IMG/VR virus record: IMGVR_UViG_3300042518_001688
Location: 1-64,000 of that record
DNA from: a virus
DNA: 64,000 nucleotides
Reading direction: 5' to 3' (one strand)
The stretch's first letter is position 1. The number at the start of each line of letters is the position of its first letter. The notes beneath the pieces were generated by a model. It was given only the letters and a program-made list of their open reading frames with translations. It had not been told where the DNA came from and searched no databases. The position numbers and the translations under genes were made by a program. Below, piece after piece: positions 19,999 through 52,687 of the stretch.

Positions 19999-20403
19999 TT
20001 ATTTTTTCTTCTGATAAGCTTGTCTCTCTGGCGCGTGATTTTTGTGGACTTCGCAATATGGATAAATTGCGTCGCTTCTTAAATTAGAATTGCACACAAG
20101 GCAGTTCATACTAGCTGCTATTTCACTAGCTATGGGCGTATCCGGATCAAATGATGTTGTGACAATAGCTATAGGTTTACCCGCTTCTTTAATGGCTTGC
20201 CATTTACATCTATTCCTGTAGTGGCTAACTATGGGTGCTGCTAACCAGTAGGGTATTCTCCCACAGGATATAATTAGTCCCTTTGTTCCATTAATTTCCG
20301 GGAATGTCATCTGTAGTAAGTCTAGTCTATCTGCTTTTCCCCTGACTTGAATAAATATCCAAGTCTCCAAGTCTTTTTCTACGGTGGTAATTTTTGTAGT
20401 CAT
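19999..20403 (-). CDS. csx3: Degenerate Csx3/Crn3-like domain fused to Zn-finger tail
   Basis: PEINGTKGLIISCGRIPYWL matches Csx3 KGVVISGRGPIWL; YDPR and SH motifs lost. Confidence 0.65.
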   Translation of the reverse strand: MTTKITTVEKDLETWIFIQVRGKADRLDLLQMTFPEINGTKGLIISCGRIPYWLAAPIVSHYRNRCKWQAIKEAGKPIAIVTTSFDPDTPIASEIAASMNCLVCNSNLRSDAIYPYCEVHKNHAPERQAYQKKK

Positions 20404-37612: not shown

Positions 37613-37797
37613 CTCAATTGACAACAGAACAACAATTCTCTATTCACTCATTTGCTCATCAGGTAAAACAAATGAGTGAGGCACAAGCGAAAGAGCTTTT
37701 GATAAAGCTGCATGAGCAAATGATTGTCCGTGAAGCGACTTATCAGGAATTACTCAAACATCAATGGGGTATTAGTAGCGTAGAGGAATTAGGATGA
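37609..37797 (+). CDS. nblA: Phycobilisome degradation protein NblA
   Basis: LTTEQQFSIHSFAHQVKQMSEAQAKELLIKLHEQMIVREATYQELLKHQWG. Confidence 0.93.
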   Translation: MTQLTTEQQFSIHSFAHQVKQMSEAQAKELLIKLHEQMIVREATYQELLKHQWGISSVEELG

Positions 37798-40417: not shown

Positions 40418-41569
40418 TTAACTTCTTAATTGTACGGGCATGGCTAAATAAGTCATTTTCAATCCACCCACAGGTGTAAAAATAACTGGGGTTAAACTCT
40501 GATTTAAGTGCATTTGAATTTCTGAAGATGGTAATTCTTTTAACCCTTCCATGAGATATTTGACATTTAAAGCAATGTCTATATTTCCTCCAGATATTTG
40601 GGCTGGCATTGATTCTGTGCCACTACCAACATCTTGAGCTTCACAAGATAGGGTTATTTCTTGATTTCCGTTATCAATGCTGAGTTTGACAATATTATTT
40701 TTCTGGTCTGCTAACACTGCAATTCGTTCTAAGGTGCTGATAAATCGCTTTTTTTCTAATGTAACTTGGCGTTCAAATTGGCGAGGAATTAATTGCCGAT
40801 AGGCGGGATATTGTTCTTCTAAGGTGCGGCTGGTTAACCGTTGATTTTGCCAAGCAAATGCTACTTGTCCTTGATCTAAATATACGGCTACCGTTTCTTC
40901 TGAATTGGCGTGTTGGACTAACATCCGTTGTAGTTCTCGTAATGCTTTGGCTGGTACTGTGACTTCTAACTGTTCGCTACCCTTTACAGGACGTTCATTT
41001 GTGGTTTCTAACACTGCTAAACGGTGTCCGTCGGTGGCCGCAAATTCTAAGGTGTCTTGTTTGAGGGTTAAATGTACACCGGTGAGGACTTGCTTGGTTT
41101 CATCGGAACTGGTGGCAAATAAAGAACCTTTTAAACCCTCAATTAGTGCCGCAGTTGTGAGGTGAATTGCTTCGGCATTTTCCATAATTGGTAATTCGGG
41201 AAATTCTTCTGCACCCATAGCCCGAACTTGATACTTGCCGCTTCTAGGTTTGAGGGTAACAATTATACCTTCTCCTCCTGCATCGCCAGAGGCATCATCA
41301 AGGGTAATTTCCCCTTCTGGTAAGCGTGAGGTGATGTCTACCAGGAGTTTGGCAGGGAGGGCAATTTCTCCACCTTCTAATACTTCGGCTGTAAAACTGG
41401 TACAGATACCTAAACTGAGGTCAAAGGCGGACAAACTAACTTGGCTAGTATTAGCGTCTGCCTTTAATAAGATGTTAGCCAGGACTGGGTGAGTTGGTCT
41501 AGATGGGACTGCACGACTGACTAGGGAAAGGTTACTGCTGAGATCCGATTGAGAACAGGTTATTTTCAT
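40418..41569 (-). CDS. dnaN: DNA polymerase III beta clamp
   Basis: RAVPSRPTHPVLAN, AATDGHRL, YPAYRQLIP, YLAMPVQ; cyanobacterial type. Confidence 0.97.
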   Translation of the reverse strand: MKITCSQSDLSSNLSLVSRAVPSRPTHPVLANILLKADANTSQVSLSAFDLSLGICTSFTAEVLEGGEIALPAKLLVDITSRLPEGEITLDDASGDAGGEGIIVTLKPRSGKYQVRAMGAEEFPELPIMENAEAIHLTTAALIEGLKGSLFATSSDETKQVLTGVHLTLKQDTLEFAATDGHRLAVLETTNERPVKGSEQLEVTVPAKALRELQRMLVQHANSEETVAVYLDQGQVAFAWQNQRLTSRTLEEQYPAYRQLIPRQFERQVTLEKKRFISTLERIAVLADQKNNIVKLSIDNGNQEITLSCEAQDVGSGTESMPAQISGGNIDIALNVKYLMEGLKELPSSEIQMHLNQSLTPVIFTPVGGLKMTYLAMPVQLRS

Positions 41570-42510: not shown

Positions 42511-43162
42511 TATCTTCGCTGGATAAAATAAGGGGTTTTACTTCTGTTTCTGCTAAACGTAATCTATTGCTTGGTTTACTGGCGTTTGGTAGAACTCTGG
42601 TAATGTAGTCTGAACGCAAGAAGTCCTGTAAACTTTCTACTGAAACCATGTGGTTCTTTGCTTGCAACCCTCTCTCGCTTACCCACTTTAAAACAGTGCT
42701 GTGGTGTACACCCAATAGTGATGCGGTGTAGTCGTAGTTGAATGATTTGAGGACTAGATCCTCTCCAATTAACTTTTTAATTTCCTTGGGATCTGCCTTC
42801 ACGATCGCGTTGAAAACCGTGTTAGGGGGATTTTCCAGGAATGCCCTTAAATCCTCTTTATTTATTATGTAAGTCCAACTCTCTTGATAAGCAGGTAACA
42901 ACCCCTTCCGCACCCAGTTGCTTACCGTTAGGTAGTTTATTTTCAGAACTTCAGCTATCTGTCTGATAGCAATACCCACTTCTTTTTTCTCTTTAGGTAC
43001 TCTAATCTTTTTCCGCCTAGTGGGTTTAGGTAGTCTTACCTCTTGTTGGGTAGTTTTGGGTGTTTCTACCCTGGGTAAGGGTGTGTGAATGTCAATCCCT
43101 GCCAACTTTGCTAGTCGCAATTCTTTCTTTAGCTCAATATCATCTCTTGTAGCCATAGTCAT
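42503..43162 (-). CDS. Double HTH (excisionase/MerR-like) DNA-binding protein
   Basis: IAEVLKINYLTVSNWVRKGLL and ASLLGVHHSTVLKWV. Confidence 0.75.
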   Translation of the reverse strand: MTMATRDDIELKKELRLAKLAGIDIHTPLPRVETPKTTQQEVRLPKPTRRKKIRVPKEKKEVGIAIRQIAEVLKINYLTVSNWVRKGLLPAYQESWTYIINKEDLRAFLENPPNTVFNAIVKADPKEIKKLIGEDLVLKSFNYDYTASLLGVHHSTVLKWVSERGLQAKNHMVSVESLQDFLRSDYITRVLPNASKPSNRLRLAETEVKPLILSSEDND

Positions 43163-45763: not shown

Positions 45764-46152
45764 GTCGCCACCTGGATTTTTAGTTGTATGTAATTTACCT
45801 CATATCCATGCTCTCTTTCTAGCACTTTGAGAGCATCTTTGATGTGGTAGGACATCTGCCCAAACCATTTAGGACAAGGCGATTCTCCCATTAAGTCACA
45901 ATATGAGTCATGAGCTTCCATCGCATCCAAAATACTGGTCTTAATATCAAACGCCAATCGGTTCAGTTTCTCCTTGACTCGATTTTTTGTAGTTGTACTA
46001 GAATCGTTCCACCAGATACTATTCTCAATTTCTATGTATGATTTCGATAGCGCGATCGCAGCAGTCAGATGTAATTTGATATCTGCCAATAATTCGTGTT
46101 CCACTTTGAGGTGATTATTGGCAACAACTAAAGCGGCATTTGTTATTACCAT
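45760..46152 (-). CDS. Hypothetical protein
   Basis: Coupled ORF. Confidence 0.65.
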   Translation of the reverse strand: MVITNAALVVANNHLKVEHELLADIKLHLTAAIALSKSYIEIENSIWWNDSSTTTKNRVKEKLNRLAFDIKTSILDAMEAHDSYCDLMGESPCPKWFGQMSYHIKDALKVLEREHGYEVNYIQLKIQVAT

Positions 46153-46415
46153 TACGCCACCTTTTCCCTGATGCTTGTTAATATCAAATCTTTAACGAAC
46201 TTTTGGTGAGCGCACATTCTATATTTGTCCCCCCAATGTGACCACTCGCATTCGCATCTTTCTCTGGGATCTGGAGCGTAAGGTCTTACCGTGTATCGGT
46301 TCTCTCTAGTAACCTTTTCCTCTCCTTGGAAATGTTGACTGAGGACTACAAACTCAGGGTATCCTTGCTCATTTGTGAGCCACCCATCTAACTGTATTTT
46401 TCTTTCTTTTTTCAT
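46152..46415 (-). CDS. SWIM-like Zn-finger protein
   Basis: CECE...MCAH. Confidence 0.6.
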   Translation of the reverse strand: MKKERKIQLDGWLTNEQGYPEFVVLSQHFQGEEKVTRENRYTVRPYAPDPRERCECEWSHWGDKYRMCAHQKFVKDLILTSIREKVA

Positions 46416-46512
46416 ATTAAGCACCTGCCAGCACTGAGAACAGTATATATTAATTTACGATAAAATGTAAATACTTTTTTGCAATTAACGGTAAAAGTGG
46501 TATTCTGGAAGC

Positions 46513-47169
46513 ATGAAAATATCACTACTCTCCCAAAAAGGGGGTGTCGGTAAAACCACGCTGTCAATCCACCTGTGTCACGCTCTGTCGCTCAAAGGGT
46601 TTAACCCAATTTTGATAGACAGCGATCCTCAAGGATCTTCCTTGGACTGGTCATTAAGGAGGCAAGGGGAAAGATTGTTTCCAGTGGTTGCACTTGACCG
46701 CCCCATTATCCATAAAGAGTTACCCAGTTTAATGAGGAGTTACAATTTTGCCGTAATTGATGGTGCGCCCAGGTTATCTAGCTTGACTCGCTCGGCAATC
46801 ATGGCATCTGACCTGATTGTTATTCCTGTACAGCCCAGTCCCTTGGACGTTTGGGCGATACATGAAGTTATTGAGCTTATCAAGGAAATACCAGAGGATA
46901 TCCTGAATGAAAACCTAAAAACTGTGTTTTTGGTTTCTCGGAAAATCGTGAATACTGCGATCGCTAGAGATTTCCTGGAGGTGTTAGCTACCTACGATAT
47001 TCCTATCCTCAACTCACAAATTGCTCAACGGGTTGTGTTTGCCGAAAGCCTTGCTTCAGGTAGCACGGTTTTAGAAGTAGCACCATTCACTCAAGCAGCT
47101 AATGAAATTAGACAACTTTGTAAGGAGATATTGACGTATGGCGACGAAGAAAGTGCCAATCACGATTAG
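46513..47169 (+). CDS. parA: ParA/ParF partition ATPase
   Basis: QKGGVGKTT, DSDPQGS, IDGAP, PVQPSPLD. Confidence 0.95.
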   Translation: MKISLLSQKGGVGKTTLSIHLCHALSLKGFNPILIDSDPQGSSLDWSLRRQGERLFPVVALDRPIIHKELPSLMRSYNFAVIDGAPRLSSLTRSAIMASDLIVIPVQPSPLDVWAIHEVIELIKEIPEDILNENLKTVFLVSRKIVNTAIARDFLEVLATYDIPILNSQIAQRVVFAESLASGSTVLEVAPFTQAANEIRQLCKEILTYGDEESANHD

Positions 47170-47524
47170 TCCATCGGTGGCGATGAGAAGTCAACTTAGT
47201 CAAGCTGATGAATGGGTTAACGAAAAAGATAGTGGGATGAAGAATTTTACTTTCTTTATCCCTGCTGCAATGAAAAAGAGGTTAGATATCTTGGCGGTCA
47301 ATAAAGAAGTGCCTATGAAATCGTTGATAGTTGATGCGGTGGCAGGTGATTTATCTTTGTTGGGTGAAATTTCCTCTTATCCACTACCACCAAAAACCAA
47401 GAAGATATCTATTAACAATATTCCTGCTGATCTTCACTCTAAGCTCAAAACCTTTGCCATTGAAAGGGGTGTGAGTATGCAGGATATTCTTATTCATTTG
47501 ATTCAGGATATTTTGAAAAAATAG
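47138..47524 (+). CDS. Tandem-RHH partition adaptor (ParG-like)
   Basis: Overlaps parA; two RHH-like units (NFTFFIPAAMKKRL, ISINNIPADLHSKLK). Confidence 0.7.
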   Translation: MATKKVPITISPSVAMRSQLSQADEWVNEKDSGMKNFTFFIPAAMKKRLDILAVNKEVPMKSLIVDAVAGDLSLLGEISSYPLPPKTKKISINNIPADLHSKLKTFAIERGVSMQDILIHLIQDILKK

Positions 47525-47553
47525 TTGCAGGTTGCGGTATTTACCGCTATACT
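47525..47553 (+). promoter_or_regulatory. Sigma70 promoter with palindromic operator in spacer
   Basis: TTGCAG-17-TATACT; spacer holds GCGGTA-TT-TACCGC. Confidence 0.7.
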
Positions 47554-47583
47554 GTAAATAGTAAACAAAAGGGCTGGCAGGTC

Positions 47584-47637
47584 ATGAATCAAGATTATAT
47601 TCCGCATCGTGGTAGTGGCAGAAAGGGGGCTGAATAA
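47584..47637 (+). CDS. 17-aa RGSGR peptide, PatS/PatX-like (not in track)
   Basis: MNQDYIPHRGSGRKGAE*; first ORF after the promoter; TAATG-coupled to the next gene. Confidence 0.65.
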   Translation: MNQDYIPHRGSGRKGAE

Positions 47638-48185
47638 TGAAGGGAAAGCCAATTTCATTTAGTCCTGCGATGGTGCAAGCTATCCAAGAAAATAGAAAAA
47701 CACAGACCAGAAGGATAGCTAACAATCTCGGAAAACCACCTTACGAGAAAAGCGATCGCTTGTGGGTTCAGGAGAACTACCGTCTATCAAAAGACGGAGA
47801 TAAATACTGGTGTGAGTATGACGACGGCGCGAAAAAGTTAGTTAATTTAAGCACGGCTGAATTAACTAAATTGAGGAAACGGAAAACGCCACACTTCAAA
47901 AAGCAACCAGGAAGATTCATGTATCGCTCTTGTAGTCGCATCTTATTGGAAGTGACAGACGTTTATAGTGAGCAATTGCAGAATATTTCTGATGAAGATG
48001 CGATCGCAGAGGGGATTGAGAAAATCAGCGAAACACAATACAGGAATTATGTAGAAACGACATATCCTTTAGTGTATCCTTTTGCTTCATTTCATAGTCT
48101 ATGGCAGTCAATTTATGGTGCTAAATCTTGGCTAGATAATCCTTTTGTTTGGGTGATTAAGTTTAAGCAGTTGGAGGCGAACTAA
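47637..48185 (+). CDS. ASCH/PUA-like phage protein
   Basis: PISFSPAMVQAI...KTQTRR...LQNISDEDAIAEG...NPFVWVIKF. Confidence 0.8.
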   Translation: MKGKPISFSPAMVQAIQENRKTQTRRIANNLGKPPYEKSDRLWVQENYRLSKDGDKYWCEYDDGAKKLVNLSTAELTKLRKRKTPHFKKQPGRFMYRSCSRILLEVTDVYSEQLQNISDEDAIAEGIEKISETQYRNYVETTYPLVYPFASFHSLWQSIYGAKSWLDNPFVWVIKFKQLEAN

Positions 48186-48445
48186 TGGAAGATATCGCTT
48201 ACAAAATCGCAATGCTTGAAACTGAGGTTTTGTTTTACAAGATGATGACCGGATGCTTGGCTAAAACTTTGGCCACAGATGAAAATGATGTAGTTGACAA
48301 AGAGTTGTACAGGCAAATTCAAGTTAATGCGTCCAATCATGTGGTTGTCTTGATAAATCAAGATTCTGGTAAGGCTCAAGATTGGGTTAACAGAAATGTT
48401 TTTGACTTTCGGACAAAGATTGATATGGAGATGAAAAATGATTGA
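48185..48445 (+). CDS. Hypothetical protein
   Basis: GGAGG RBS, coupled. Confidence 0.7.
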   Translation: MEDIAYKIAMLETEVLFYKMMTGCLAKTLATDENDVVDKELYRQIQVNASNHVVVLINQDSGKAQDWVNRNVFDFRTKIDMEMKND

Positions 48446-48749
48446 CAATCAATTAATATCTGACAACTTCCTTTTATCCCCAATGGGTAAACCAGAGACA
48501 TCTGGATATAAAGAATTTGATGACGAGTACAGAGGATGGAGGATTTGGCTTGATTGTCCCAATGGCGGAATATTGGCGGTTGATATTCTTCATTATGAAC
48601 GGGGTCTGTGGTTAGGTTGCTCTACTTGTGAAAAGTTTGATTATGATGACGATGAAGGTATTGTTAATTATGCAAAAGAAATAATTGACAAAATAGAATC
48701 TTTTCTGGATGGACTGTCTGGTCAATTATCGTTGCTTGAGGTGGTGTAA
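48438..48749 (+). CDS. Hypothetical protein
   Basis: Coupled ORF ending in GQLSLL (clamp-binding-like). Confidence 0.65.
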   Translation: MIDNQLISDNFLLSPMGKPETSGYKEFDDEYRGWRIWLDCPNGGILAVDILHYERGLWLGCSTCEKFDYDDDEGIVNYAKEIIDKIESFLDGLSGQLSLLEVV

Positions 48750-48952
48750 TGAAGATTGAAGTTAACGCAAATGGATGGCTAATGATTGATTTTGGTTTCC
48801 TAGAAATCAATTCCAGTGGAAGACAAGAAGGTGAGTACCCATTTGGCTGGTTTGATGTTAATTTCTATTATTTTCATCCCACAACCAAAATAGTAAAAAG
48901 GTTGATTTTTACAAAGCCTGTGTTAAGTGACAACAGTAATCCGCCGTTTTGA
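48749..48952 (+). CDS. Hypothetical protein
   Basis: GAGG RBS, TAATG coupling. Confidence 0.6.
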   Translation: MKIEVNANGWLMIDFGFLEINSSGRQEGEYPFGWFDVNFYYFHPTTKIVKRLIFTKPVLSDNSNPPF

Positions 48953-49021
48953 TTTTTGGAAAATATGCGATCGCCTTTATTCAGTTAGAGCGATGCAGTT
49001 AAAAAGCAACGTAATTTAGGA

Positions 49022-49237
49022 GTGGTTAAAATGCGCGATGAATTGAAAGAAACTGTTGAAACTTTGGTAAATGAAATTCTTGACTACGAAAGTGATACTT
49101 TTTCTAGTGGAGCTAACGTAGTCACCAGAAAAGAAGCTGAACACATGGCGGCACAAGTGATCAGTAATTGCTTTGATAAATACGATGGATATTGTGTACA
49201 GGATTTACTGGACAATATTAGGGGAGAAGAAGATTAA
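49022..49237 (+). CDS. Hypothetical protein
   Basis: AGGAG RBS. Confidence 0.6.
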   Translation: MVKMRDELKETVETLVNEILDYESDTFSSGANVVTRKEAEHMAAQVISNCFDKYDGYCVQDLLDNIRGEED

Positions 49238-49262
49238 TCTTGTAGGTTTATCGAAATGAAAT

Positions 49263-49636
49263 AAATATGCGATCGCAATTATTAAAGCGATCGCACATAA
49301 GGAGAATTATGAAGAAACCAATAGCAATGAGACAGTATAGGTTAACTATCGTACCTTACGACAATAACGCTAGAAAAATCTGTGAGAGATTAAATGATAT
49401 TTGGGGTCATGGCGTTTTCCGTGAGTGCCGTAATGATAATGAGATATCACACCTTGGGTATCTTAAATGGGATGATTGGGAAAGTGATATCGCTAAGATT
49501 CAAAAAGATTTTCCCGATATCAAAATCCAAGTAGAAATTGATTAGTTTGGCAACAAGATAGTTTCCCATCTAGAAAATATGCGATCGCAATTATTAAAGC
49601 GATCGCACATAAGGAGAATTATGAAGAAACCAATAG
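49263..49636 (+). repeat. 62-bp direct repeat (49263-49324, 49575-49636): two HIP1, RBS and MKKPI start
   Basis: Exact duplication. Confidence 0.92.
49309..49545 (+). CDS. Hypothetical protein
   Basis: Start within repeat copy 1. Confidence 0.65.
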   Translation: MKKPIAMRQYRLTIVPYDNNARKICERLNDIWGHGVFRECRNDNEISHLGYLKWDDWESDIAKIQKDFPDIKIQVEID

Positions 49637-49764
49637 TCATCGTTTGTGAAGTGCCTGGTGAAGACCCAAGGGTAGTTATAAAGTTCGATGATTACCAAGA
49701 AGCCGTTAATCATCTAGCAATGCTGAATCAAGAAACAAACACCAATCCTTATAGAATTTTCTGA
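49621..49764 (+). CDS. Hypothetical protein
   Basis: Start within repeat copy 2. Confidence 0.6.
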   Translation: MKKPIVIVCEVPGEDPRVVIKFDDYQEAVNHLAMLNQETNTNPYRIF

Positions 49765-49984
49765 TTGATGTTGATATGCGATCGCGCAAATACGATCAAA
49801 CACAGGAATAAGGAGAACAATAAAATGCAATCAGTAACTTGATAAGTATAATTAAAGGAGTAATTGATTACTCCTTTTTTTATTAATTAACCTTGTAGAT
49901 CCAATAATGGGAAATATTGAAATATGGGATCAGATAAGAAATGACTCGAACTTGGGGAATCACAAGAGAAATTAATTAATATTT

Positions 49985-52687
49985 ATGTGGTTATTGGGAA
50001 ATGACGATCTTCCCCATGTGGCAGTAGAGTCAATTAGCGGACTACCCTTGGCTACATTGGGCGGAGCAAAGAGAGATAATATCGGATTATGCCTTATTGA
50101 TATACCTGATTTAATAACCGGGGGTTTGTCGGCTATCACGATAAATACTGCGGTAGTAACGGTAAGTGACACCCTTGCCGTATTTGAAGTTACCTATGGC
50201 AACAATGTTTTTACTCTCGCCGACACCGACACACCCCAACCCGGACAATTCACTTTTGATCACAGTACCCAACAAATAACCCTGCACACCAGCACGGCGT
50301 TACCGATAGGAATGAATGCAGTAGTTAGAGGTGGGAAGAACCTTACACCAGCGATCGCACATGGTTCTGGCTTACCTCCTGCGGTAAATACTGCTTTACC
50401 TTTAGAAACAAATTATGTTAGCCCTGGATTGTTTTGGTTGTTTTGGGGATTACCCATAATTGGTACTATCAATTGGGGTTGTTCCTTTGAGCAGCAGCCA
50501 TCAGGAAGCATCAATTTATTTGTCCCAAGGTCAAGTATTGGTACGGTGCGATCGCGCTTCGCTAGAGGAGAGGAACTGCAATTTGCTGGTATAGGTTTTA
50601 GTGTCAACGCCTATAGTGAAAAATTATTGAATACAGAGGAATATCCTGGTGGGTTCTACGAGGTAGGAGTTAGTCTAACTGGTTGGTCTAACCAATATAA
50701 ATATTTAAAGCCAGTATTATTGAAAGACCAATTTGATGCGGATTGCTCATTAATTGCTAATGGTGATTCAATTACTTTCGGTTCTGGCACGGCAACCAAA
50801 ACAAGCGTTAGCTCTCTATCAAAAAAGAATGGTGTCAGTGTTAACCTTGTTGGGGAGAAGTGGGATGTGAGTATTCCTGCTGGTGCTGCGGCTGACGCTA
50901 CAACCAGTTGGCAAGGGGAAATGCAATCTCGACTGAGAGTGAATGGAGCATTTATCAGCTATTGCTCTCCGGGTGTGGTTAAAGCCAAAGGTATTAATTC
51001 CGTTTCCCGGTGGAGTTTTCACGTACCTGAGTTTGAAATCGCCTACCAAGGGGAGATTAAACCTGTTCACTGGAAAGTAGACGGGCAGTTCTCTAAAGAA
51101 GCAAACAATGAAGACACAGAAGATACTCAAAGCAAGAATGTAGTAACTAGCGCCGAACCCAAGTGGCAGAAGAAAGAACCATTTACTGAGATAGTAACCA
51201 ATGGTGATGAAAATGCAGCTACTTGTCCTGATGTGGGGGGAGAATTAAAAGATCCTAGTTCCAATTTCGATACATCTGGACCAACTAAGAGTTTAGAAAT
51301 ATCTGTGATGATAGACGGTTCACCTTTGTCTCGCAGGAATGTAACCTTTGGTTATGCTTACACCGCGTATGACATTTACGAAGGTGAAGACTCCGATACT
51401 GAAACGCCTGTTTTCTCTGGCGCACCTGAGAACTATTGGCAGATTATTAAAGACCAGACAGAAAACTTCTACTATGACGATAAAACTGGGTATTTAACTG
51501 GTAGTCAGATACATGGTTGGCAGTTGGTAAGGTTTAAAACAGAGTCTTTCAAAGTTGGTGAAGTTGCCAATCCCCCAACCGTAGTAGGTAATGCGGAAGA
51601 TGCGGATGTAGAGGATGTCCTGTCACTGGAATATTACAAGTTCCGACAAGCACCTATAAACGGGTTTAGCGAATATTATTTATTGCAACACTCCGATTAC
51701 TACAAAGATGTTGAGCCACCACCAAAAGTACAGTATCCGGTGTGTACTAAAGCGGGAATTAATCAATGGGTGAAAGAGTACAAGGAAGTTGTAGACCCTA
51801 ACTGGATTCCTTCAATGTTTGTTAAAAAGGAACAGAGGTTTGTTAATACTTTTTTCTCTATCAAAGATCCATTAAATCGGCTTAAAGAAGAGGATGAGCC
51901 AAGAAACCCAGATTTAACCACAGGGGAAGAATCCTACCAATCCAGACAAATTTATATTTTGGCATCGGCAAATACTACGATGCCGAGATTGGTTTTTGAT
52001 TTATTCGACAAAAGTGATACTGCACCAGATAGATATTTAGAATACAACAAACAATATAGTGCCAGTGGTCCACAATTTAATAGTGTGGCTGAAGAGGTAA
52101 AGGCATCCCAACAGTCGGGTAGACCCGGAATAGCTACAAAACGAAATATTACTTATGACAGGGTTAAACCTGAAGGTGTTGATTTCAGGGTTAGTTCCGG
52201 CGGAGGTAATAACTCTGGGACAAAATACGAGTTTCATCTATTGTCGGGAAAGGATATTAATGACGTAGTTGACGGGTCTGTGTCTTACCCTTATGCAGAA
52301 ACAAAAGCGGATGCTATTAGAAATGCTGAAACTGAATTAACTATTCAACGTATTCAAGAAGTTGGTTCTGCTTCGGCAGTTATACCGTTTAATCCAGATA
52401 TTCGTGAATTTGATAAAGTGACTATTTCCACTGGTTATGACAGTTATAGGTTAAGAGTTTTATCATTTTCCAATAGTGTGGAAATACATGGTCAATTAGA
52501 TGGATTACCGTTTGTTACTTCTGATGGCACTAAATTGTCATTGGGGTTAGATCAGTCCGCTAGTTTTACTATGCAAGAAAAAGCTATTCCTCAGCCAAAA
52601 ATAACCCCAGCCGGTGATCCCAGTAAAAAGGGATTAACACTAGGCTGGGTGAGTAATATTGTTCTTAAAAACAGGAGAAGACCATGA
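49985..52687 (+). CDS. Putative tail/baseplate structural protein
   Basis: 900 aa, beta-rich, in the virion gene region. Confidence 0.6.
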   Translation: MWLLGNDDLPHVAVESISGLPLATLGGAKRDNIGLCLIDIPDLITGGLSAITINTAVVTVSDTLAVFEVTYGNNVFTLADTDTPQPGQFTFDHSTQQITLHTSTALPIGMNAVVRGGKNLTPAIAHGSGLPPAVNTALPLETNYVSPGLFWLFWGLPIIGTINWGCSFEQQPSGSINLFVPRSSIGTVRSRFARGEELQFAGIGFSVNAYSEKLLNTEEYPGGFYEVGVSLTGWSNQYKYLKPVLLKDQFDADCSLIANGDSITFGSGTATKTSVSSLSKKNGVSVNLVGEKWDVSIPAGAAADATTSWQGEMQSRLRVNGAFISYCSPGVVKAKGINSVSRWSFHVPEFEIAYQGEIKPVHWKVDGQFSKEANNEDTEDTQSKNVVTSAEPKWQKKEPFTEIVTNGDENAATCPDVGGELKDPSSNFDTSGPTKSLEISVMIDGSPLSRRNVTFGYAYTAYDIYEGEDSDTETPVFSGAPENYWQIIKDQTENFYYDDKTGYLTGSQIHGWQLVRFKTESFKVGEVANPPTVVGNAEDADVEDVLSLEYYKFRQAPINGFSEYYLLQHSDYYKDVEPPPKVQYPVCTKAGINQWVKEYKEVVDPNWIPSMFVKKEQRFVNTFFSIKDPLNRLKEEDEPRNPDLTTGEESYQSRQIYILASANTTMPRLVFDLFDKSDTAPDRYLEYNKQYSASGPQFNSVAEEVKASQQSGRPGIATKRNITYDRVKPEGVDFRVSSGGGNNSGTKYEFHLLSGKDINDVVDGSVSYPYAETKADAIRNAETELTIQRIQEVGSASAVIPFNPDIREFDKVTISTGYDSYRLRVLSFSNSVEIHGQLDGLPFVTSDGTKLSLGLDQSASFTMQEKAIPQPKITPAGDPSKKGLTLGWVSNIVLKNRRRP

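Follow-up and report, generated by a model that had tools for sequence, protein, structure and literature searches.

The HetR protein and its RG(S/T)GR-containing inhibitors are the textbook bacterial case of Turing-type patterning. PatS is given as 17 amino acids (aa) long in the excerpt available of PMC12756182 and as 13–17 aa in that of PMC9284123; it carries the motif at its C-terminus, is expressed from a developmental promoter and is processed to RGSGR or ERGSGR (PatS6). PatX is a protein of about 65–110 residues with a Sec signal peptide, a Pro-rich N-Q-P-E spacer and a P-H-R-G-S-G-R-[RK] core that is followed by further residues, and its developmental promoter is of the DIF1 (TCCGGA) type (PMC7377430, in the part available). 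According to the available portion of PMC12756182, PatX depends for its activity on export and on trimming to a hexapeptide, its maturation needs both export and PatP, and cytosolic PatX is inactive in Nostoc. HetN is a full-size ketoacyl-reductase-like protein that uses an internal RGSGR (excerpt of PMC4649674). RGSGR, ERGSGR and HRGTGR peptides are reported to bind HetR and to block differentiation (PMC4649674 and PMC12756182, both as excerpts). In the crystal structure of the HetR hood with PatS6, the free amino group of the hexapeptide and its C-terminal carboxyl both contact HetR, and substitution of the residue ahead of RGSGR is described as leaving the affinity for HetR unchanged (PMC4649674, same excerpt).

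The locus described here lies in a linear IMG/VR virus record of 83,408 b, estimated to be 71% complete and with a GC content of 0.41; the window comprises its first 64,000 nucleotides (64 kb). An initial annotation had proposed that a 17-codon small open reading frame (smORF) in the window encodes a PatS/PatX mimic, and every sequence feature that it named was found at its named position. The features discussed below are these:

37615–37764, + strand: nblA (PF04485, 70.7 bits, over the cut-off)
40418–41569, - strand: phage dnaN (beta clamp; phrog_947)
46513–47169, + strand: ParA ATPase gene, in the region directly upstream of the smORF
47138–47524, + strand: gene for an RHH, Arc/CopG-like protein of 128 aa, adjoining the putative promoter
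47525–47553, + strand: putative early promoter TTGCAG-17-TATACT, directly after the RHH stop
47534–47547, no strand assigned: perfect palindrome GCGGTA-tt-TACCGC, candidate operator within the promoter spacer
47573–47581, + strand: leader 9-mer GCTGGCAGG, one of four exact copies, each 5' of an ORF start
47584–47637, + strand: smORF, 17 codons (MNQDYIPHRGSGRKGAE) and stop, with ATG at 47584 and TAA at 47635–47637
47599–47628, + strand: PatX-like core I-P-H-R-G-S-G-R-K-G, from the PatX profile, a core matrix and 30 native PatX genes
47637–48185, + strand: ASCH-like gene, 182 aa (phrog_874, E 1.2e-46; homologues named 'ASCH domain-containing protein')
48185–49877, + strand: remaining small genes of the presumed operon, without assigned function (ORFs of 86, 103, 67, 71, 92 and 61 aa)

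The smORF occupies an intergenic gap and is co-directional with the neighbouring genes, and its ATG is the sole in-frame start codon 3' of the putative -10 hexamer. The RGSGR codons are at 47608–47622 and are followed by KGAE to the end of the peptide; RG[ST]GR occurs this one time in the six frames of the window, and likewise in those of the whole 83,408-b record. Seven residues (MNQDYIP) stand ahead of the core, they include no hydrophobic stretch, and the peptide accordingly has no Sec signal peptide.

With PatS the smORF peptide has in common its size class, the absence of a signal peptide and RGSGR, and like PatS it would presumably be cytoplasmic. It differs from PatS in that KGAE follows the motif, in having H instead of E ahead of it, as in PatX, and in standing behind a putative phage promoter. 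The motif is internal as in HetN, however, there is no likeness to HetN outside the motif. With PatX the peptide shares the P-H-R-G-S-G-R-[RK] core and the presence of further residues after the motif, whereas it is only 17 residues long, lacks both the signal peptide and the N-Q-P-E spacer, and has no TCCGGA nearby, the one copy in the window being at 20141. It is also virus-encoded, is not near a hetR gene and shows no DNA-level sign of recent patX capture. What is new here is that the match to PatX extends past RGSGR to the P-H and K flanks. On the evidence of this comparison, the peptide would work like PatX and PatS while being a member of neither family. As a separate observation, the single TCCGGA in the window compares with 9.9 ± 3.5 expected, and this scarcity suggests restriction-site avoidance.

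Of 151 Nostocaceae genomes, 140 contain a match to the PatX profile NF047413 that exceeds its cut-off. In the best 30 Nostocaceae PatX loci RGSGR is invariant (30/30), H at -1 and R or K at +1 are each found in 28 and P at -2 in 27, and 4–14 further residues follow the motif. The IPHRGSGRKG stretch of the smORF comprises the whole of this conserved core and includes G at +2 as well, a residue that among these best 30 loci is confined to a group including G054 and G056. A search of the 83-kb genome with NF047413 gave one match, at 47554–47625, which covers profile positions 44–67 of 69 with 16.9 bits and E 7.9e-4, a score below the curated cut-off of 30 bits. In 638 kb of sequence from five cultured phages whose hosts are filamentous cyanobacteria, the same profile found nothing at E<=10. 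With a matrix derived from 11 unique 12-residue PatX cores, the smORF scored 25.6 bits and the runner-up site in the genome 9.2, and none of 150 shuffled genomes reached the score of the smORF (maximum 21.8; Gumbel p ~2e-4).

These scores bear on the possibility that the smORF is an unselected intergenic ORF that spells PHRGSGRK by pure chance. RGSGR by itself is weak evidence: in Markov-1 shuffles of the window it appears 0.12 times per window and at least once in 11% of 300 shuffles, the corresponding frequency of HRG[ST]GR being 0.003. Very many windows were surveyed, moreover, and the motif was actively looked for. An IMG/VR-wide search with the DNA pattern P-H(CAT)-R-G-S(AGY)-G-R-[K/R as ARR] retrieved 21 stretches, 11 of which truly encode PHRGSGR[KR]; none of these 11 is a credible gene, and they include no second phage smORF. 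However, 10 of the 11 lie in contigs with a GC content of at least 0.61, far from the composition of the present contig. The remaining one, L152 (MRHSPPHRGSGRK..., GC 0.42), was considered as a second phage case and rejected, as it runs antisense inside a virion structural gene. In metagenome contigs the core pattern gave 65 true matches in 80 loci among the matches listed; at a GC content of ~0.4, four of the five true matches listed are complete PatX genes that encode a hydrophobic leader, and beyond host patX genes the listed matches are high-GC chance matches. Because of these IMG/VR and metagenome counts, the octapeptide in low-GC DNA is taken mostly to mark PatX. Chance is very unlikely in our estimation, because the PatX flanks, the profile match, the matrix score and a host lineage with patX and hetR coincide, in an ORF that is ATG-led, apparently coupled and intergenic, in a phage whose host lineage uses the PatX signal.

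The host lineage is indicated by the phage dnaN, which is 93% identical at the nucleotide level to dnaN of G054 and 91% to that of G056, two Nostocaceae genomes of 4.5 and 4.7 Mb; among the matches listed, about twenty more genomes are at 81–87% and most other matches at 76–87%. These identities suggest that the gene was captured recently from a host, and as such it would mark the host lineage. Both G054 and G056 carry patX with the sequence PN[TP]HRGSGRRGLD, which has G at +2 in common with the phage, and HetR_C scores 148 bits in G054, G056, G055 and G083, whose dnaN genes are 87–93% identical to that of the phage. The initial annotation had pointed out that a host lacking hetR would count against its proposal; the probable host lineage has both hetR and patX. 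The closest named homologues of the ASCH-like gene come from Dolichospermum metagenome-assembled genomes (MAGs).

Compared with patX of G054 and G056, the smORF core has eight identical residues, three of them with the same codon, and 21–23 of 39 nt match. Over host patX genes overall, 17–23 of 39 nt match and 2–4 of the 5–8 identical residues use the same codon. This likeness of the core DNA to host patX is far below the 93% of dnaN. Residues that are kept while their codons differ would fit convergence, or a capture long ago with selection since then, but not a recent copy; with eight codons as its basis, this is suggestive only.

The same comparison is relevant to a second explanation, namely that the smORF is a PatX-related sequence without HetR-directed work: a decayed remnant of a captured patX, an untranslated ORF in the 5' leader, or an upstream ORF through which translation of the coupled ASCH-like gene is regulated. 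The missing signal peptide and the mere seven residues ahead of the core speak for this explanation, as does the inactivity of cytosolic PatX in Nostoc. A neutral remnant, however, is not expected to lose all else and yet retain exactly the 8–10 residue active core, with an ATG and an uninterrupted frame, and the retention of residues with codons that differ from host patX also argues against it. Taking these points together with the signals up- and downstream of the smORF considered below, we regard this explanation as unlikely, although it is to be taken seriously.

Since both termini of the hexapeptide contact HetR, the 17-mer would need trimming at both ends. The initial annotation had expressed the concern that the motif is not C-terminal, and KGAE does follow it, but the concern loses force because native Nostocaceae PatX likewise has 4–14 residues after RGSGR. 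Native Nostocaceae PatX needs trimming at both ends as well, presumably in the periplasm. The K-G-A-E codons may in addition be constrained by the following gene, the Shine-Dalgarno-like sequence AAAGGGGG at 47622–47629 being located inside the last smORF codons.

Upstream of the smORF, TTGCAG (47525–47530) directly follows the TAG stop (47522–47524) of the RHH gene and is separated by 17 nt from TATACT (47548–47553). The hexamers and the spacer of the promoter proposed earlier are present; the match to the sigma-70 consensus is nevertheless weak (8 of 12 positions), and TTGCAG-17-TATACT is absent from the list returned by a promoter scan. The Arc/CopG-like RHH protein encoded immediately upstream would be a candidate binder of the palindrome in the spacer. 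The leader 9-mer GCTGGCAGG has four exact copies in the window (47573+, 46424-, 43165- and 18398-), where ~0.5 are expected (128,000 positions / 4^9), and each is located 2–11 nt 5' of an ORF start. A leader shared by the smORF with other genes had been claimed before, and the three further ORF starts bear this out. The ATG follows GCTGGCAGG after 8–11 nt at the other three copies and after 2 nt at the smORF; the gene at 43162 also has a first ATG 2 nt after the 9-mer. The 20-nt leader of the smORF shows 80% likeness to the leader at 46416–46435, which belongs to the divergent gene. The 9-mer may be a phage-specific leader or a regulator site that marks one transcript class. For the reading of the smORF as a remnant or an upstream ORF, the poor spacing between leader motif and ATG and the weak promoter match are favourable observations.

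Two of the GCTGGCAGG copies have a longer sequence, AAAAGGGCTGGCAGG, in common. The RNA fold of the smORF leader showed no significant structure (z -0.09), and a repeat search near the smORF yielded nothing further than the leader motif. We also considered that RGSGR might be the by-product of a degenerate second leader copy (AGTGGCAGA compared with GCTGGCAGG, 6 of 9 positions), and rejected this as too weak to account for the P-H and K flanks.

Downstream, the smORF stop overlaps the ATG of the ASCH-like gene, as had been noted from the outset, in a TAATG with a shared A at 47637. From this arrangement the ASCH-like gene is presumed to be translationally coupled to the smORF. A hairpin resembling an intrinsic terminator at 49854–49877 closes the run of small genes, and we infer that the smORF, the ASCH-like gene and the small genes form one operon. 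The TAATG overlap and the Shine-Dalgarno-like run in the last codons would suit a coupling or leader role of the smORF, and to this extent they fit the explanation in which it does no HetR-directed work; a pure coupling ORF, on the other hand, would not need this particular peptide. Within the small-gene run, the adjacent ORFs at 49267–49545 (+) and 49579–49764 (+), of 92 and 61 aa, start with an identical stretch of 19 residues (MRSQLLKRSHIRRIMKKPI) and differ beyond it, so that a 5' end is present in duplicate.

The wider gene content of the window includes genes for ribonucleotide reductase, DnaB, the beta clamp and DarB-like proteins. The 900-aa protein at 49985 has cultured relatives only in phages of Nodularia, Planktothrix and Aphanizomenon, at 22–25% identity. 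ParA together with the RHH protein suggests a plasmid-prophage lifestyle. The presence of nblA, which the initial annotation had put forward as a first handle on the nitrogen-starvation programme, is confirmed by the PF04485 match listed above.

The reading we favour, and to which we give about an even chance of being right, is that the smORF is a genuine phage gene, expressed early, for a minimal virus-borne HetR antagonist of the PatX/PatS type. The earlier proposal of a PatS/PatX mimic gains from the PatX-like flanks, the unique profile match and the presence of patX and hetR in the host lineage, while the published data speak against activity of an unprocessed cytosolic peptide. Upon infection, or upon induction of the plasmid-prophage, host RNA polymerase would transcribe the unit from the operator-bearing promoter, and translation of the first cistron, in coupling with the ASCH-like gene, would yield the peptide. 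Host peptidases would then trim it to an HRGSGR-type peptide, which would fit as a β-strand into the lateral cleft that the hood domain of HetR has, and take HetR off the DNA. As a result, commitment to terminal heterocyst differentiation would fail in the infected cell and perhaps in adjoining ones, which would stay vegetative. In a phage that also breaks down phycobilisomes by means of NblA, this would prevent a host starved of nitrogen from passing into a terminal state in which it no longer divides. The steps of this scheme, from transcription and translation of the smORF to trimming of its product, HetR binding and the phenotype, are all inferred, and the missing Sec signal peptide, the need for trimming at both ends and the weak initiation signals would weigh against activity.

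If the smORF product does antagonize HetR, it would represent a new class of host take-over, in which the virus controls cell fate rather than metabolism, and with nblA the phage would have two ways to act on how bloom-forming Nostocales respond to nitrogen starvation. The 17-residue natural variant with both flanks would, in addition, be a tool for finding out which peptide forms act and how they are trimmed. An extension of the HetR-antagonist reading is that the peptide acts as a diffusible mimic of the host morphogen, with trimmed HRGSGR spreading along the filament and holding uninfected neighbours vegetative and phage-permissive. In that case the virus would alter, from a distance, the developmental pattern of a multicellular organism, and would in effect announce itself to other cells of the filament. 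Judged by the sequence evidence at hand, we attach a low probability to this extension.

A PatX mimic could also be directed at a target other than DNA binding by HetR in the infected cell: it might compete for HetL or for the machinery of PatX/PatS maturation or transport, such as the PatP peptidase, exporters and septal junctions, or it could serve as a phage-to-phage signal along the filament. Both flanks of the smORF core resemble the processing context of native PatX, whose maturation relies on export and PatP as outlined above, and HetL is reported to bind HetR and to block inhibitor binding (PMC12756182, in the portion available). For a phage with the plasmid-prophage look conferred by ParA and RHH, communication could pay. 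However, PatP acts in the periplasm, and how a peptide that lacks a signal peptide would get there is not obvious; the smORF, moreover, has no linked gene for a receptor or regulator, and HetR is the simplest target of an RGSGR peptide. Such alternative targets are in our view distinctly improbable, and HetR remains the target that we favour.

RGSGR motifs are also present in another phage of a heterocystous host, Aphanizomenon phage vB_AphaS-CL131 (MG209611.1). Its gp091 (81116–81514, - strand, 132 aa) has HRGSGR at residues 6–11, and in the start of this protein (MRTKSHRGSGRRKM) a basic residue comes after HRGSGR, as in the smORF. The gp103 protein (87056–87493, - strand, 145 aa) has CDERGSGR at residues 129–136, nine residues from its end. 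Both are annotated early-region genes, with the motif in frame. Outside the motif, gp091 and gp103 have no homologue in the genome studied here and none in the phage collection, and neither is matched by NF047413. The CL131 motifs count in favour of the HetR-antagonist reading, and the lack of any RG[ST]GR in three Nodularia phages and PaV-LD counts against it. Our literature search, for which the sources were available in part, retrieved no paper on a phage-encoded RGSGR peptide. Two side observations concern the same phage: CL131 has a third motif, RGTGR, antisense to its DnaD gene, and the 90-aa protein encoded beside parA (46152–46424, - strand) aligns with the part of gp103 that precedes RGSGR at 25% identity over 80 residues, which is not significant (E 0.78).

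As single queries, the ASCH, RHH and 900-aa proteins found no close relative among the scanned loci. A search with an ASCH alignment retrieved three loci at 31–35% in viral contigs, 60 loci at 25–39% identity in genome contigs and none in metagenome contigs, and 389 Nostocaceae genomes held no ASCH homologue above 43% identity. In blastn comparisons there was no match in the phage collection, and parA was the sole match among plasmids. Among ASCH homologues known as proteins, P0002, P0124 and P0125 are 79% identical and are encoded on contigs of 5.6–7.4 kb, whereas P0003/P0127 and P0005/P0141 come from contigs of 129,682 and 26,380 nt. The closest named ASCH homologues, P0004 and P0006 from the Dolichospermum MAGs, have other upstream sequence, with the frame continuing as MNDLLSHFDISVVPIKPIS, and they lack the smORF. 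Because their upstream sequence differs, the smORF is not a fixed partner of the ASCH-like gene; its absence from these two loci is a further point for the view that it is a remnant or a leader ORF. The ASCH reading frame of P0004 (295 aa) continues into the following gene, in a gene order unlike that of the window, and MNDLLSH.DI.VV.IKP occurs in it twice, once before the ASCH portion and once where the two genes join.

The stretch itself is contained in 20 rows from 14 lake and freshwater metagenome studies; no RNA dataset containing it is among the matches listed. Four metagenome runs that were compared are near-identical to the window. The strain in run X14, which differs by ~1%, has no change in the smORF, where ~0.5 would be expected, so that the lack of change carries no weight either way. 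This run, a lagoon metagenome, also contains a second variant, whose contig departs from the window sequence at 47923 and codes for the KSCTRLWLEV version that P0002 has; two related phages thus co-occur.
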